Below are positions 24,925 through 63,051 of a stretch of DNA of 64,000 nucleotides, one piece after another. The translations under genes and the position numbers were made by a program. The DNA is taken from the IMG/VR virus record IMGVR_UViG_3300037461_000646, positions 1-64,000 of that record; one strand, 5' to 3'. Position 1 is the first letter of the stretch. The number at the start of each line of letters is the position of its first letter. Source of the stretch: a virus (lineage: Duplodnaviria > Caudoviricetes). The notes under the pieces were generated by a model. It did not search any database, was not told the origin of the DNA, and was given only the letters and a program-made list of their open reading frames with translations.

Positions 24925-25146
24925 CTACTCACCCCCTCTTTGTTTTTCTTTGTCGTAAATTAACAGTTCAAGCAATGTGATGAGCTTACCATACCGTTCT
25001 GAATCCCCCTTTGAGACTTCAACCATGCGCTGAAGCACCAAGTCTTTGTTTCTGAGAAGTCGGTACAACAGCAATACGACAATCAACAACGCCACGATAG
25101 CAGGGTTGATCTTGAAGGCTTCTAGTATGTGATCTGATTCAATCAT
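24925..25146 (-). CDS. Small single-TM membrane protein (holin-like)
   Basis: One TM segment followed by a charged helix. Confidence 0.6.
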   Translation of the reverse strand: MIESDHILEAFKINPAIVALLIVVLLLYRLLRNKDLVLQRMVEVSKGDSERYGKLITLLELLIYDKEKQRGGE

Positions 25147-28100
25147 AGATCCACCACCCTCAATTTACCATCGATCTCGTAAGTATTGTCAAGGCTTGTG
25201 ACTGCCTTGAATGTGATCTTGTAAGGTGAAGAAGCCACAGCCCCAGCCGGTTTCAATTGGGTCTTGAGCTTGGTCACATCTTGAACCGAAAGCCCCTGAA
25301 CCATTTCTGTTGTGACATCCGTACCGGCTGAATCGACAACAGTTACCGTGCATTCTTCTATTTCAAGGTCTTCGTCTGTTACGAGAACATCCACATAATC
25401 TGCGTAGATCGGGTAAGACTCATTGGGCTGCTTGTAAATGGTTTCTAACGCTGGCTTTCTGTCGCTCACTTCTACCACCTCCGTCCATGTTGAACTAATT
25501 GTATCATGCGTGAATGTTGAGTCAACTGATTCGTGCCTAAATGTCCAGGTTATGTCTTCATGCTCAAAGCCAATGTCGGCATCGGGCACGTAGTACGTGG
25601 TAGAAGTTGTTGACATGGTGGAGCTACTGGTAGTAGTCCATCCAGAAGAAGTGGTCTTGGTCGAGCTTGATGTAGAAGCCGTTGAACTTGTGGTCGTGGT
25701 TGAAGTCGTGGTCGAGTAAGTTGCTGGGGCCAGTATGCCGAACACGAATGGAGCACTATTAATCGGCCCTGTGTACCCAAAAACATTTGTACCGGCTGCA
25801 TCATCGACGTTTCTCTTATAGTAGTGGTAGGCACCAAACTGGCCCCTCAGAGAAGCGTAGACCGTTCTGACAGCCGTGCATCGAACAAAAGCCGACACAA
25901 CAATGGGCTTGTCTGCACTCAGGTCAAAATAAACGTGATCAGAGTAGCCCGTTTCGTTAAAATCAAAGGTCTTGCTGGCAGACCCGTTAAATGTGACTTG
26001 TACCTGACTGCCATCAAAGTCGTATGGATCAGCACCTGAAGCTGCACTGGCATGACCCACATACATATTTTGAATAGTGAAGGGGGAACTTGCAACCGCA
26101 GAGCCTTTGATAAAGACCTGAATATAGTTGCCTGACCGACGAATATATTCAGGTGGAATAACAATTCGATAGGTTCTAAGATCACCTATGTCGAGTATGG
26201 TGTTTGCCGCCGCCTCACCCCAAGCCCACTCAACCGGGGCAAAGGTGGTCGTAGTGCTTGAACTCGATGAGGTTGAAGTCGTTGACGAACTCGTGGTGGT
26301 GGATGAATAGGTCGAACTCGATGAAGCCGTTGAACTGGTCGTGGTGAATGTAGAGCTTGTCGAAGCCGTTGAACTCGATGAAGACGAACTTGAACTTGTA
26401 GTAGTCGTAGAGGTTGTTGAAGCCGTTGAACTGGATGATGATGAGCTTGTGCTTGTGCTGGTGGTACTGCTGCTGCTGGTCGAAGACAAGCTTGTGCTGG
26501 TGGTGGAAGTGCTGCTTGACGAACTCGATGAGCTTGAACTCGTGCTGGTGGTGGTCGTGGTGCTGGTCGAGCTTGTTGAGCTTGAACTCGTGCTGGCTGT
26601 CGAGCTTGAACTCGATGAAGTGGAGCTCGATGAGGTTGTGGTGGTCGTGGTTGAAGTACTTGTCCACCCCAATCGAGTAGTCGTTGTAGTGGAAGATGAA
26701 CTGACCGTTGTGCTGCTCGTGCTGGTAGAGCTTGAAGACGAAACCGTGGTTGATGAAGAACTTGTGCTGCTTGTACTCGTGGTCGTGGTGGAGCTACTGG
26801 TAGTCGAAAGAGTAGAACTGCTCGTGCTCGTGCTTGAACTGGTCGTGGTGGTGTATGAACTGGTACTGCTAAAAGTAGAGGTTGTCGTACTGAAACTTGA
26901 ACTCGATGTGCTGGTGCTGGTCGAGCTTGAAGTTGAGGTGCTTGTCGTGGTGCTGAAACTCGTTGTGGTCGTGGTGCTGCTTGTGCTGGTTGAACTTGAA
27001 CTTGTCGTGGTTGACAAGGTGGAGTATGTCGTGCTGGTACTCGATGAAGACGTACTCGTACTGGTCGTAGTGGAGAAGCTTGTGCTCGTGCTGCTGGTCG
27101 AAGATGAACTTGTTGTGGTAGTTGAAGATGAAGTGGTAGTTGTGGTCGTGGTGTTCGACAAACCGATACTAATATCATCAAGAATGTACTCAGCCACAAG
27201 AACCGTGGTCGATGTTGAGCTTGAGCTTGACGTACTCGTACTGGTGGAAGTACAGGTCGTTGACCCGGTAGAAGTCGAAATGGTTGAAGCCGTTGAACTG
27301 GATGACGAAGAAGAACTTGAACTGCTCGTACTGGTAGAAGTCGATGTGCTTGAACTCGTCGTAGAGAACGTCGAACCTGTCGTACTTGAAGTGGAAGAAC
27401 TGGTGCTTGTAGTTGTACTGTGGGTACTTGTGCTTGAAAAAGAGCTTGAAGACGAACTTGAAGTGGTGGTTAAAGTTGTGGTGCTGCTACTGGTTGTGGA
27501 AAGGGTGGAATACGTTGTTGACGAAGATGAAGAACTCGTGCTTGTCGTAGTAGACAAGGTAGAGGCTGTTGAACTTGAACTGGATGAACTTGAACTGGTC
27601 GTGGTCGAAAATGTGGTACTTGTACTTGTCGTGGTCGAAAGGGTTGAGGCCGTGGTGCTGGAGCTACTCGATGACGAAGTGCTGGTACTCGTGCTGGTCG
27701 AAGTCGAAGTGGTAGAGGAACTTGTCTCACCTGGATATGTACTACTCGTTGTTGAAATCGTGCTGATCGTTGAAGCTGTCGAAGACGATGAACTGCTGCT
27801 GGAACTCGTTGTTGTCGTAGATGATGAAGTGGTTGAAAGGGTACTGGCTGTAGAAGAACTTGTGCTGCTTGATGACGAACTAGTTGAAAGGGTTGAGGCT
27901 GTGGATGAACTCGTGCTGCTCGATGATGAACTGGTTGAAAAGGTGCTGGTTGTCGAAGAGGTAGAGGATGAACTGGTCGAAATAGTTGAGGCTGTAGAAC
28001 TGGTGGAAGATGAACTGGTCGAAAGGGTTGAAGCCGTCGAAGACGAAGAAGACGAACTGCTGCTTGTCGTAGTAGACAAGGTTGATGCTGTTGACGAAGT

Positions 28101-61707: not shown

Positions 61708-61725
61708 GGACGTAGTCGTCGTGCT

Positions 61726-63051
61726 TCAGGCAGTGGTCGTGGTCGTGCTGCTGCTGGAGCTCGACGTTGTGGTGCTGGTTTCGGCCTGATGAGCCGTGGT
61801 CACAACATCAATCGTGTAAATGGCATCACGGTTGAAGAGAATGGGCAAGCCCTTGTCCTGAACGCGAATCCAGGTCACTTCGGGGTCCCACTCGTCGTAG
61901 CTATCGGTGAACTGACCGTAGGTACGATTCAGGCCAAACGGGGCCTGTTTGTACTCGGCAATCGGCTGACCATCCACCTTGGAAGCCATCATGATGAACT
62001 TGTCATCAGGAATAAACGGCTTTGCCTGGGTGACGTAGTCCTCCCCAGCTTTGTAGCTGGTCGTAGTCGGGTAATTGATCTGAACGGTGCCATTCTCGGC
62101 GTTGACGCTGAGAACAACCCGATCTTCGTAGGAGCCAGCAGAGACATCCCAAAAACGAATGGCTGCATCGGCCTCAAAGTCGGAAACATCGTCCAGGCTG
62201 ATCCAGGTGGTCGAACCACCCGTGACCGCACCCGTGAGCCATGCCCGAACCTCGTACATCTCATCGTAAACGATGAAGTTGGGGATATCGAGCAAGGAGC
62301 CAATGACCTTCGGGTTGACTGCAATCAGATTGTGCAGACCACCCGAATACAGGTTGTTTTCACCCACCATGAAATTCTGGCGTTTCAGAATGTCCCGAAT
62401 GGTGGTGTCTGCGGCCAACAGCTTCAGCACATTGCTGTTGAAGAGGGCGTAATCGATGTACCCCCCGCAATCGCGCTGAAGGGCAATCTTGGCATCACGA
62501 ATGTCGCCAAGAATGTCTTTGCTGCCGCCGTTGTTCCAATTGTAGGCAGAAGCCAGAGTGACACGGTGATCACTGGGAATGCCATAATCAACGCTGGCTC
62601 GGTAGCCACCCTTAACATGGTAGCTGAAGCCGTTGTTGCACAGCATCTGAGCGAACATCCATTCTTTGCGGCGCATCGAACGGTTTTTCAGACCCGCAAG
62701 CTCACGGGCCAGTTTCGCTTCTGCACTCTGGTAGACAGCATCGGTGCCCGGTTGACGAAGATTGTTCAGAAACTCCTCATCGAAGGGCATTTTCTCTTTC
62801 CAGTAAGCAGCTTCGGCAACGTGCTGTGCAACCCCATGGGGGGAAGTCACAGGGGCCGGGGTGCCCGGTGCGACGAATGGGGTCATGCCACGACCCCCGC
62901 GCTGGGATTCCCACCGAATAGTGCTGCTCGGAGAAGTAGAAGCCCCGAACAGATTCATGAGAAGCAGATTCGGGGGTGTCATGAACGACTGCATGAACCC
63001 CTGAAGCACCTCAAGTCTCAGAATAGGTATATCAGAAGAACCTCTGGGCAT
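61726..63051 (-). CDS. Major capsid protein (lambda gpE-like) with insertion domain and Ser/Thr tail
   Basis: MTPFVAPG, YWKEK, RRKEWMFAQML..G, VDYGIP..H, DIL.DI, RVQDKGLPIL...DAI; ends ETSTTTSSSSSSTTTTTA. Confidence 0.88.
   Translation of the reverse strand: MPRGSSDIPILRLEVLQGFMQSFMTPPNLLLMNLFGASTSPSSTIRWESQRGGRGMTPFVAPGTPAPVTSPHGVAQHVAEAAYWKEKMPFDEEFLNNLRQPGTDAVYQSAEAKLARELAGLKNRSMRRKEWMFAQMLCNNGFSYHVKGGYRASVDYGIPSDHRVTLASAYNWNNGGSKDILGDIRDAKIALQRDCGGYIDYALFNSNVLKLLAADTTIRDILKRQNFMVGENNLYSGGLHNLIAVNPKVIGSLLDIPNFIVYDEMYEVRAWLTGAVTGGSTTWISLDDVSDFEADAAIRFWDVSAGSYEDRVVLSVNAENGTVQINYPTTTSYKAGEDYVTQAKPFIPDDKFIMMASKVDGQPIAEYKQAPFGLNRTYGQFTDSYDEWDPEVTWIRVQDKGLPILFNRDAIYTIDVVTTAHQAETSTTTSSSSSSTTTTTA

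Follow-up and report, generated by a model that had tools for sequence, protein, structure and literature searches.

Whether a phage can build sugar-acceptor tracts into its own particle and decorate them with its own enzymes is the question raised by the DNA studied here. The source record is an 89,207-bp IMG/VR virus genome that has direct terminal repeats and a completeness rating of 100%, and the window is the whole stretch analysed, bases 1-64000 of that record (64,000 nucleotides). From 25143 to 63769 every gene lies on the minus strand, so this is the strand of all genes of the block located below. A first-pass annotation had proposed a mucin-type O-glycosylation system in this block. 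On the whole, our analysis makes O-glycosylation of the virion proteins by the phage itself, in the cytoplasm of the host, probable; it would rely on Ser/Thr-only acceptors and a five-gene enzyme module.

Ser/Thr tracts in the late structural genes

We define a tract as a Ser/Thr-only run of at least seven residues, and scan the complete 89,207-bp genome in six-frame translation. The scan returns exactly six real genes, all in the late operon, and they are the same six co-oriented tract-bearing genes that the first-pass annotation had listed. With an expectation of about 0.15^7 per position, a chance origin of the runs is excluded, and simple slippage is unlikely because the codons of the tails are mixed (ACC, ACA, ACG, ACT, AGC and TCG). 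One further run is found in an antisense ORF (4368-4808) that overlaps a plus-strand gene.

Three of the six proteins carry short C-terminal tails. The major capsid protein (61726-63051, 441 aa; Phage_cap_E 2e-33, phrog_29 6e-49) ends with 16 Ser/Thr-only residues (aa 425-440 of 441), followed by Ala and the stop. The tail tube protein (57420-58046, 208 aa) matches Phage_TTP_17 major tail protein clusters with an atlas score of 0.96, is encoded immediately upstream of the genes for the chaperone and the tape measure (the latter phrog_1533, 4e-55), and has an 8-residue poly-Thr tail (aa 200-207 of 208). The third is a 221-aa protein of the head-tail connector region (60197-60862) with a tail of 14 Thr/Ser residues (aa 207-220 of 221). 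The capsid and tail tube identities given earlier are thus upheld by family and atlas matches, while head closure is a weak lead for the connector protein (atlas 0.80, Phage_HCP clusters) and the tail tip assignment of the fourth protein comes from synteny only. This putative tail tip or central fibre protein (45826-51171, 1781 aa) is encoded by the second gene after the tape measure, has a BNR_6 match with BNR (Asp-box) propeller-region repeats, and gives no match in the PHROG search. Its six runs, 103 residues in total, form a tract that spans about 150 aa (aa 1497-1648) and is followed by a C-terminal domain. The remaining two are giant mucin-like proteins. The one of 889 aa (31255-33924) is 61% Ser+Thr, with 23 runs comprising 451 residues and globular C-terminal domains, and has an ortholog in the relative G001 at 69% identity. 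The one of 1796 aa (25143-30533) is 64% Ser+Thr, with 56 runs comprising 880 residues, and proceeds from an N-terminal glycine-rich domain (Gly_rich_2 9e-17; similar to phrog_863 of the tail category, 2e-16) through the runs to globular C-terminal domains; its orthologs are found in G001, G003, G006 and G007.

The enzyme cassette

The enzyme block contains five supported glycosyltransferases (GTs), two methyltransferases and one radical SAM/SPASM enzyme. Five of these genes make up the core module, namely GT4, GT1, methyltransferase, GT-A and GT2. The GT4-like GT-B enzyme (42665-43933, 422 aa) shows weak Glyco_transf_4 and Glycos_transf_1 matches and phrog_2170 glycosyltransferase at 1e-5. The GT1 enzyme, also GT-B (Glycos_transf_1; 41541-42674, 377 aa), matches PF00534 at 7.5e-6, just under the cut-off, and at 6.8e-8 in the genome search, and is conserved in the module. 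The class I SAM methyltransferase (40955-41554, 199 aa) has weak matches to Methyltransf_23 (9e-4) and the methyltransferase phrog_24759 (4e-4), and is co-conserved with the GTs on more than 40 viral contigs. The GT-A fold enzyme (40239-40964, 241 aa) has no family match; its AF2 model (pLDDT 92.4) finds SpsA, GnT-I and TarP in Foldseek at E 1e-9 to 1e-7, and residues E90 and D92 of its HLEDDW motif are invariant. The fifth, of GT2 / GT-A type (38421-39380, 319 aa; PF00535 1e-10), is called the GT27-like enzyme below.

The other genes of the block are accessory or vary between phages. The second methyltransferase (Methyltransf_11, PF08241 3e-12; 39392-40237, 281 aa) is carried by only part of the module-bearing contigs. 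The Glyco_trans_1_2 glycosyltransferase-like protein (PF13524 2e-13; 43973-44920, 315 aa) has a homolog in 0 of 20 related records and is absent from the closest relatives; weak homologs exist at some other cassette loci. For the radical SAM/SPASM enzyme (44872-45813, 313 aa; PF04055 9e-18, SPASM 2e-6), homologs are present in the tail-bearing G002, yet also in the tail-less G009, G011, G012 and G014. The family matches therefore bear out the two methyltransferases and the radical SAM enzyme as members of the block, but the latter lies outside the conserved module. Five of the six GT-like genes claimed at first are supported. The sixth, the 230-aa protein p230 between the two mucin-like genes (30526-31218), remains a candidate GT with a conserved DxD: D70 and D72 are invariant across 128 homologs, none of them annotated (0/128), searches of Pfam, PHROG, NCBIfam and PDB find no match, and profile searches give no clear link to a GT.

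Transmembrane segments and signal peptides are absent from all acceptors and all cassette enzymes, and both sets of genes lie within the late structural operon, so that enzymes and acceptors would meet in the cytoplasm. No nucleotide-sugar synthesis genes are found in the phage genome, which means that the sugar donor must come from the host.

A GT27-like enzyme as candidate initiator

Searched as a profile against PDB, the GT27-like enzyme has ppGalNAc-Ts as all of its best five matches (E 1e-4 to 2e-3), with the alignment in register at the DxH and WGGEN-type motifs. Its AF2 model has a pLDDT of 93.5, and the best matches in Foldseek, about 48, are again all ppGalNAc-Ts (E about 1e-15). In the structural comparison (VIA) the model reaches Z 26.3 with GalNAc-T1 and 24.6 with TgGalNAc-T3, compared with at most 18.8 for other GT-A enzymes; 282-288 of its 319 residues superpose on these two structures. 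Sequence identity to ppGalNAc-Ts is only 13-19%. In 29 homologs D107 and H109 (DxH), G207-G208-E209 (GGGEN) and H233-H234 are invariant. Neither a lectin domain nor a membrane anchor is found in the enzyme. Judged from the predicted model, the likeness to ppGalNAc-T fits the label "mucin-type" closely, and the enzyme is a candidate initiating Ser/Thr O-glycosyltransferase. GT-A enzymes of similar fold use many kinds of acceptor, and the resemblance is that of a predicted structure.

Co-occurrence of module and tags

Among close relatives, the tails and the core module go together. Capsid homologs at about 60% identity or above all have the tail, while those at 58% or below end cleanly without it. 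Tails on capsid, tube and connector proteins are present in G000, G001, G002, G003, G006, G007 and G008 and lacking in G009-G017. The connector orthologs have the tail in all tail-bearing genomes and lack it in the tail-less ones, and the tail tube alignment (A2) shows a conserved core of about 195 aa with the tail appended only in cassette-bearing genomes. The core module, in the order GT4-GT1-MT-GT-A-GT2, is found at 41-88% identity in all five tail-bearing relatives complete enough for the comparison (G001, G002, G003, G006 and G007), and in none of the tail-less ones. An exception is G013, which has one tail and 189 residues in Ser/Thr runs and lacks the GT27-like gene. The tracts and the GT cluster had been expected to co-occur rather than to be scattered at random, and co-occurrence is what we find, carried by the module. 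The contrast between the sister clades amounts to a single evolutionary event in one lineage.

Beyond the close relatives, 69 viral contigs carry the GT27-like gene, and at least 40 of them have the entire five-gene module; the GT4-like gene is the most widely co-conserved partner of the GT27-like gene. These phages are of various lineages, since the Phage_cap_E capsid occurs in only 6 of 29 long contigs with the gene. Six complete genomes with unrelated structural genes (G023, G024, G028, G029, G037 and G041) have 2-8 ORFs with poly-Thr/Ser ends, and two more (G030 and G045) have giant Ser/Thr proteins. The tagged proteins in unrelated lineages include the major tail protein phrog_807, the head decoration protein phrog_49 and tail proteins; the tagged phrog_807 consists of the N-domain only, with poly-Thr in place of the usual Ig domain. 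Overall, 47 tails are counted in 1.16 Mb with the GT27-like gene or module, against 1 in 0.53 Mb without, and residues in Ser/Thr runs amount to 781 per 100 kb with the gene against 46 without. In the reverse direction, 2.9 million viral contigs yield only 32 ends of nine Thr, Ala and stop, of which at least 22 lie in fragments of these module-bearing phage groups; all 18 loci with two or more tails likewise belong to them. Exceptions exist on both sides: G033 (80 of 95 kb examined) has the GT27-like gene and almost no tracts, and a lone poly-Thr tail occurs in each of two complete genomes that lack the gene.

Alternative explanations

The tracts might instead be unglycosylated, serving as bare flexible spacers, hydrophilic bristles or adhesive peptides, while the cassette has another target during infection, for instance a small molecule, or else LPS precursors or envelope polysaccharide of the host, for superinfection exclusion or for blocking re-adsorption of progeny. 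Phage GTs modify host surface glycans or DNA more often than proteins. In addition, the tail-less relatives retain a GT cassette in their virion module (a GT1+GT9 fusion, GT2, two radical SAM enzymes and three methyltransferases) with no Ser/Thr tags, showing that GTs amid structural genes do not in themselves imply tag glycosylation, and a Ser/Thr run within 10 kb is missing from 23 of the 69 module loci. Merely having any GT does not discriminate between tailed and tail-less phages. Nevertheless we regard bare tracts as unlikely, because tags and module co-occur over unrelated structural lineages, the key enzyme is clearly closer in structure to protein Ser/Thr glycosyltransferases than to lipid or polysaccharide GT-A enzymes, and the cassette enzymes are all soluble, with no flippase, bactoprenol-type membrane GT or Gtr-type membrane acceptor-GT. 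To our knowledge, no other role has been described in phage particles for exposed termini that consist purely of Ser/Thr.

If the tags are glycosylated, as we prefer, the first sugar might still come from a host enzyme or from a different GT of the phage, of GT4 type, leaving the GT27-like enzyme only to extend the chain. GtfA, which is GT4-type, initiates on serine-rich repeat adhesins. The wide co-conservation of the GT4 gene would suit such a role, as would G013, where Ser/Thr tracts accompany a weak GT4 homolog, and the two complete genomes with a poly-Thr tail, both cases lacking the GT27-like gene. Conversely, G045 has the GT27-like gene without the remaining module and two proteins with Ser/Thr tracts of 115-179 aa, the phage GT4 resembles neither GtfA nor any solved GT in sequence, and the gap in fold similarity speaks for an action of the GT27-like enzyme on polypeptides. 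We therefore give this alternative somewhat less weight still than bare tracts. That the cassette hypermodifies phage DNA, as in T-even and TET/5hmC-linked phage GTs, with the tracts unrelated, is highly improbable in spite of documented precedent for phage GTs decorating DNA with diverse glycans (bioRxiv 10.1101/2023.12.21.572611; PMC13326640), since among the larger genes searched there is no cytosine or thymidine hydroxymethylase, TET/JBP dioxygenase, DNA methyltransferase or nucleotide-modifying pathway, the cassette lies within the late structural operon apart from the replication genes, and the co-distribution of module and tags would be left unexplained.

Relation to known glycosylation systems

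The closest known system to the virion glycosylation proposed here is that of mycobacteriophages, as in Che8, whose glycans are reportedly attached by O-linkage to the C-terminal ends of capsid and tail tube subunits. Likeness lies in phage-encoded GTs, capsid and tail tube targets, and a glycan coat over the whole particle, here predicted. The Che8 capsid and major tail protein end with KTGS and SDGS, with no Ser/Thr homopolymer, whereas tags of 8-20 residues (up to about 70 in some relatives) are present here on up to 8 proteins per phage, plus the giant mucin-like proteins. The enzymes also differ: in a tblastn search of 50,697 phage records with the GT27-like enzyme, no mycobacteriophage is matched, and there is only one distant match, at 21.5% identity. 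Moreover, the module moves between unrelated lineages of phage, and the hosts are uncultured and non-actinobacterial, judging by G+C content (36-47% in the clade of this phage) and MAG labels. According to the cited sources, phage-encoded GTs add the glycans to capsid and tail tube in Che8, Corndog and Myrna (Freeman et al. 2023, Cell Host Microbe 31:1216, via PMC11256854, PMC12363180).

With eukaryotic mucin-type glycosylation (CAZy GT27) the phage system shares dense Ser/Thr tracts, a predicted GT-A fold of initiating type, the DxH metal motif, the GGGEN/WGGEN-type motif and a conserved downstream His. The phage enzyme differs in having no ricin-type lectin domain, signal anchor or stem, and would work in the cytoplasm rather than the Golgi; the elongating enzymes are of bacterial GT-B and GT-A type, and the glycan is probably methylated. 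In Gram-positive bacteria, serine-rich repeat adhesins are O-glycosylated in the cytoplasm by GtfA/GtfB and accessory GTs, from a multi-GT cluster beside the substrate gene. Very long Ser-rich substrates and a neighbouring multi-GT cluster are in common, but the phage GT4 has no sequence link to GtfA, no GtfB-like partner or accessory Sec genes are seen in a general family search, and the phage substrates are virion proteins lacking export signals. Mimivirus and its relatives (fibrils) and the chloroviruses (capsid) also have virus-encoded, host-independent machinery for glycosylating capsid-associated proteins or fibrils. Unlike this phage, they encode nucleotide-sugar pathways of their own; chlorovirus glycans are N-linked, and Mimivirus R699 resembles the GT27-like model at the generic GT-A level only (Z 14.6).

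Proposed mechanism

In the mechanism that we propose, the acceptor sites would be the short C-terminal tags on capsid, tail tube and connector proteins, the tract of the putative tail tip, and the two giant mucin-like proteins. Most likely it is the GT27-like GT-A enzyme (38421-39380) that would start the chain, by transferring one sugar to Ser/Thr hydroxyls, probably a hexosamine or hexose donated as its UDP derivative. The glycan would then be extended by the other GT-A enzyme together with the two of GT-B type, and one or both methyltransferases may cap or tailor it. Shielding, adhesion and spacing, the functions suggested at first, are conjectural for such a coat. The accessory genes, i.e. 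the second methyltransferase, Glyco_trans_1_2, the radical SAM enzyme and p230, vary between phages, and through them the glycan may be diversified from one phage to another.

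Genome organization and Ser/Thr tracts

The window covers positions 1-64,000 of an IMG/VR genome of 89,207 bp, which has direct terminal repeats and is rated complete. Positions 1-24400 (+) hold an ordinary replication module with primase, DnaB-like helicase, sliding clamp, clamp loader, PolA-UDG fusion, RecA, FEN and an SbcCD-like nuclease. The fusion is a family A DNA polymerase (9123-11723, +) with an in-frame N-terminal domain of the uracil-DNA glycosylase superfamily (UDG, 6e-20). This arm also includes a caspase-family peptidase (17858-18664, +; Peptidase_C14, 5e-24) and, among the early/replication genes, a second radical SAM protein of 389 aa with a weak score (5802-6971, +), whose conservation is limited to the closest relative. 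The rest of the window is essentially a single long late block on the other strand (25143-63769, -), and where the two arms join lies a stand-alone response-regulator receiver protein (23952-24407, -; 2e-19); a similar gene is seen near the glycosyltransferase (GT) module of another contig (L113). No tRNAs were found in the window. In order of transcription, the late block encodes a decoration-like protein, the major capsid protein (Phage_cap_E, 2e-33), connector genes, the tail tube, chaperones, the tape measure protein (phrog_1533, 4e-55), a 246-aa protein, a 1781-aa tip/fibre protein, an enzyme cassette, three proteins with N-termini of signal or lipoprotein type, and finally two giant Ser/Thr-rich proteins flanking a small gene.

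Within this genome, a six-frame scan detects Ser/Thr-only runs of at least 7 residues in exactly six genes and one antisense ORF, and the six are those named in the first-pass annotation. Ser and Thr together make up 64% and 61% of the two giant proteins, in which pure Ser/Thr runs account for 880 and 451 residues. C-terminal tails of 16, 14 and 8 Ser/Thr residues are found on the capsid protein, a 221-aa connector-region protein and a 208-aa protein respectively, each ended by one small aliphatic residue and written in mixed codons. The assignment of the 208-aa protein as tail tube is well supported by an atlas score of 0.96 to Phage_TTP_17 clusters, which is clearer than the profile-profile comparison of its family with phrog_807-type major tail proteins (44% probability). 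For the 221-aa protein the tail itself is confirmed, while the head-closure label is a weak lead (atlas score 0.80). Similarly, the Ser/Thr tract of the 1781-aa protein (45826-51171) holds, and its role as tail tip is putative, assigned by synteny. Just upstream of this tract, at about residues 1040-1350, are about seven SxDxGxTW Asp-box repeats as in a BNR/sialidase-type beta-propeller, possibly a receptor domain that binds or cleaves glycans.

The three genes with export signals (33933-38008, -), located between the enzyme cassette and the mucin-like genes, are unusual within a virion block. One product, of 333 aa, contains a lipobox-like LVAC, and the other two carry a signal peptide: a 256-aa protein, and one of about 763 aa (probable start 36224) that also has Big_7 and glucodextranase-B-like Ig domains. 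Possible identities are secreted or lipoprotein morons (receptor-blocking proteins like T5 Llp, for instance) or a secreted depolymerase.

The GT27-like enzyme

The most informative member of the cassette is a 319-aa GT2-family enzyme (38421-39380, -). Its AlphaFold model has a pLDDT of 93.5, and in Foldseek about the top 48 PDB matches are all ppGalNAc-transferases (ppGalNAc-Ts), with E values around 1e-15 and TM scores up to 0.73 over the whole chain. When the model is compared by VIA-align with 48,161 representatives, mouse GalNAc-T1 (Z 26.3; 288 residues aligned, rmsd 3.1) and Toxoplasma GalNAc-T3 (Z 24.6) lead, with 282-288 residues aligned for these two, while generic GT-A enzymes start at Z 18.8. 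A profile of 29 family members gives ppGalNAc-Ts as the five best PDB matches (E 1e-4 to 2e-3), followed by other GT2 enzymes at 3e-3, and the profile alignments coincide with the DxH metal motif and the WGGEN-type motif. The Mn2+-binding DxH, in place of DxD, reads FVDGHC, with D107 and H109 invariant in the 29 homologs. H233 and H234 are likewise invariant and align near the GalNAc-T histidine that serves as downstream His ligand. The Gal/GalNAc-T motif is YGGGENF, with G207, G208 and E209 invariant, and aligns to (I)WGGEN of GalNAc-T10 and TgGalNAc-T3. The modelled GT-A domain specifically resembles the catalytic unit of ppGalNAc-Ts (GT1 plus Gal/GalNAc-T motifs), at a sequence identity of 13-19% and with Glycos_transf_2 as the only Pfam assignment. 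The C-terminal ricin-type lectin domain and the N-terminal type II membrane anchor are absent, the 319 residues corresponding to the catalytic domain alone, and no hydrophobic segment was found in them. Like the enzymes of the GT27 family, it may transfer GalNAc from UDP-GalNAc to Ser/Thr of polypeptides, for which the co-distribution with Ser/Thr tracts gives indirect support.

Other enzymes of the cassette

Six GT-like genes had been proposed for the virion block, and five of them are supported. The GT2, GT1, GT4-like and Glyco_trans_1_2 proteins are recognized by Pfam or PHROGs, and a 241-aa protein without annotation (40239-40964) is placed fifth by a confident model with GT-A fold; NCBIfam and single-sequence PDB searches of the cassette GTs returned nothing specific. 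The sixth (30526-31218) has an invariant DxD and no demonstrable GT link: neither the family databases nor the PDB, searched with the single sequence and with a profile, gave a match, and against the two GT-A families of the cassette the hhalign probabilities stayed at about 1% or below. The two methyltransferases and the radical SAM/SPASM enzyme are confirmed as well. None of the cassette enzymes or acceptor proteins has an export signal, and all of them are soluble.

Two of these genes fail as markers of the system. The Glyco_trans_1_2 protein (43973-44920) has no match in 20 related records, and is an accessory gene private to this phage. The radical SAM/SPASM enzyme, which had been counted as part of the system, is not module-specific: tail-less relatives have homologs of it while most tail-bearing relatives do not, and it belongs to a wider habit of GT cassettes described below. 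In addition, a Methyltransf_24 gene lies outside the window at 70965-71561 (-) of the genome (6965-7561 of stretch L271). Its homologs sit within the GT module of three other genomes (G023, G028 and G029), and it may be a third methyltransferase acting on the glycan, here displaced from the module.

Co-occurrence of tails and module

Based on the capsid protein, 54 relatives are found in IMG/VR. All homologs with at least about 60% identity have a C-terminal Ser/Thr tail, of about 70 residues in three, while all those with at most 58% identity are tail-less and stop at a conserved ...Y(I/V)LDV motif. We then compared 15 related genomes or long fragments. The tail-bearing relatives have tails on the capsid, the 221-aa protein and the tube, together with giant Ser/Thr proteins; in the tail-less ones the orthologs of the same three proteins end cleanly. 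A blastp matrix places a module of five genes (GT4, GT1, a 199-aa methyltransferase at 40955-41554, the 241-aa GT-A protein and GT2) in 5 of 5 sufficiently complete tail-bearing relatives (41-88% identity), whereas no tail-less genome has it. The co-occurrence that the first-pass annotation had proposed to test is observed; strictly, the contrast with the sister clade is a single evolutionary one. The presence of any GT is not a discriminating feature, since PF00534 and PF00535 match nearly all relatives, the tail-less included.

Besides these relatives, nine further genomes with the GT2 family were compared, whose structural genes have no similarity to those of this phage. ORFs ending in poly-Thr/Ser number eight in G024, six in G037, four in G029, four in G041 (all TTTAP), three in G028 and two in G023. 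G030 has no tails and five giant Ser/Thr proteins, and G045, which has GT2 alone of the module, encodes two proteins with Ser/Thr tracts of 115-179 residues. Among the tagged proteins is a major tail protein that matches phrog_807 over the N-terminal tube domain only, poly-Thr replacing the usual Ig-like domain; the others are head decoration (phrog_49), tail (phrog_1101) and head-category structural (phrog_687) proteins. The tagged proteins of these lineages are expected to lie on the particle exterior. Overall, 47 tails are counted in 1.16 Mb with the GT2 family versus 1 in 0.53 Mb without, and the residues in Ser/Thr runs are 781 versus 46 per 100 kb.

The reverse search agrees with this. 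Only 32 matches to a DNA pattern for nine Thr, Ala and stop are found among 2.9 million viral contigs, and 28 of these are real in-frame tails. At least 22 are on fragments of the same phage groups, as are 18 of 18 loci with two or more tails. The exceptions are two complete genomes with a single poly-Thr tail each and no GT2-family gene, G013 with some Ser/Thr tracts and no such gene, and G033 (80 of 95 kb examined) with the gene and few tracts.

Between the 221-aa and 176-aa head-tail connector genes, the tail-less sister clade carries an insertion of about 8-9 kb that forms a different cassette (66162-74867 of G011, which is 6162-14867 of stretch L083; also 77532-84158 of G010). Its products are a 692-aa protein in which GT1 and GT9 (heptosyltransferase-like) domains are fused, a GT2, two radical SAM enzymes (one with SPASM) and three methyltransferases, one being rhamnosyl-O-MT-like. 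Placing GT cassettes in the virion module is thus more widespread in this group, and only the GT27-like module tracks the Ser/Thr tags. Since the protein heptosyltransferases that act on autotransporters are of GT9 type, the sister-clade cassette may serve another kind of virion glycosylation.

Distribution of the GT27-like family and hosts

On the whole, the family comprises 889 metagenomic proteins and is found on at least 69 viral contigs, at least 40 of which have all five module genes in conserved order. The Phage_cap_E capsid is present in only 6 of 29 long module-bearing contigs, and some contigs reach 142-277 kb. On the jumbo-sized contigs (L157, L166, L169 and L182; 142, 224, 277 kb), the GT27-like gene is accompanied by GT4 and radical SAM, and two Ser/Thr-rich proteins of about 1290 aa adjoin a homolog of the 1781-aa protein. 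Only 7 of 185,579 species genomes have the family, all on MAG contigs of phage-like size; it is almost confined to viruses. The enzyme has no PHROG family, and tblastn with it as query finds no close homolog in 50,697 sequenced phages, mycobacteriophages included. The sole match is Tunturiibacter phage Tunturi_4 (21.5% identity), where the GT lies between terminase and portal. Tunturi_4 has no Ser/Thr tails and was rejected as an analogue, leaving no cultured one in INPHARED.

Evidence on the host is weak, and consists of MAG labels and a PEP-CTERM protein. The seven MAG contigs (L230-L236) are labelled as Desulfobacteraceae or 'Deltaproteobacteria' (4), Proteobacteria (1), Thermoplasmatota (1) and Thorarchaeota (1), reflecting either a weak hint of the host or mis-binning; the two archaeal labels would be notable if real. 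The PEP-CTERM protein is a metzincin-like protease (PF07589, 7e-6; Peptidase_M10, 2e-4) at 73696-74436 (-) of the genome (9696-10436 of L271), and a phage-encoded sorting signal of this type implies a Gram-negative host with an exosortase.

Proposed mechanism

The most economical reading of these genes is cytoplasmic O-glycosylation of the Ser/Thr tags and tracts. Soluble and co-transcribed late, the cassette enzymes and acceptors would meet in the cytoplasm, where the GT27-like enzyme would add the first sugar, the second GT-A and two GT-B enzymes would extend the glycan, and the methyltransferase of the core module would methylate it, with phage-specific accessory enzymes varying the product. 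Pfam scans of 30 of the larger non-structural genes across the genome found no nucleotide-sugar genes, so the donor sugars would have to come from the host. The tagged C-termini are probably external, judging from the Che8 precedent, the replacement of the external Ig domain in phrog_807 tail proteins, and general knowledge of HK97-fold capsids. That the cassette hypermodifies DNA, as the GTs of DNA-glycosylating phages do, is rejected because the companion enzymes that supply hydroxymethyl or hydroxy bases were not found: the same scans gave no dCMP/dUMP hydroxymethylase, TET/JBP or cytosine methyltransferase. Glycosylation of the virion is likely to be real.

Comparison with known systems and implications

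Among known systems, the glycosylation of mycobacteriophage virions comes closest (Freeman et al. 2023, as cited in later papers). GTs are present here and the capsid and tube have special C-termini, which may be modified as in the Che8 type; the Che8 capsid and tail proteins end in ...GS without a Ser/Thr homopolymer. The GT27-like enzyme is also unlike the mycobacteriophage GTs, none of which it matched. As for the GtfA/GtfB system of serine-rich repeat proteins, with its GT4 initiating enzyme GtfA, this phage encodes a GT4-like GT-B enzyme, for which phmmer gives no match to any PDB chain, GtfA included. The enzyme set differs from that of mycobacteriophages, its leading member being related to the transferases that initiate mucin glycosylation in animals, and the module travels through many uncultured phage lineages with poly-Ser/Thr tags on capsids, tubes, decoration proteins and fibres. 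In the literature we found no description of GT27/ppGalNAc-T in phages or of poly-Thr tails on capsid or tube.

To our knowledge, phage-encoded virion glycosylation has been shown for mycobacteriophages only and is reportedly rare elsewhere, and ppGalNAc-transferases are regarded as eukaryote-specific. A bolder proposal, which we consider rather unlikely as a whole, is that true mucin-type O-glycosylation (HexNAc on Ser/Thr) in phages of bacteria, perhaps also of archaea, is initiated by this large and virus-restricted family of soluble enzymes; that genetically encoded glyco-tags and bottle-brush mucin fibres evolved there independently; and that these enzymes are the nearest relatives in the prokaryotic world, possibly the source, of the eukaryotic ppGalNAc-transferases. 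If the virion glycosylation itself is confirmed, it would raise the question of the origin of the eukaryotic GT27 enzymes. Glycobiology would also gain a polypeptide O-glycosyltransferase that is compact, soluble and cytoplasmic and comes with a short, portable acceptor tag, a pair that could serve glyco-engineering in bacteria. For the phages themselves, sugar coats would then be a strategy common in the environment, with a bearing on the stability of particles, their attachment to surfaces or biofilms, and evasion of recognition by hosts or grazers.
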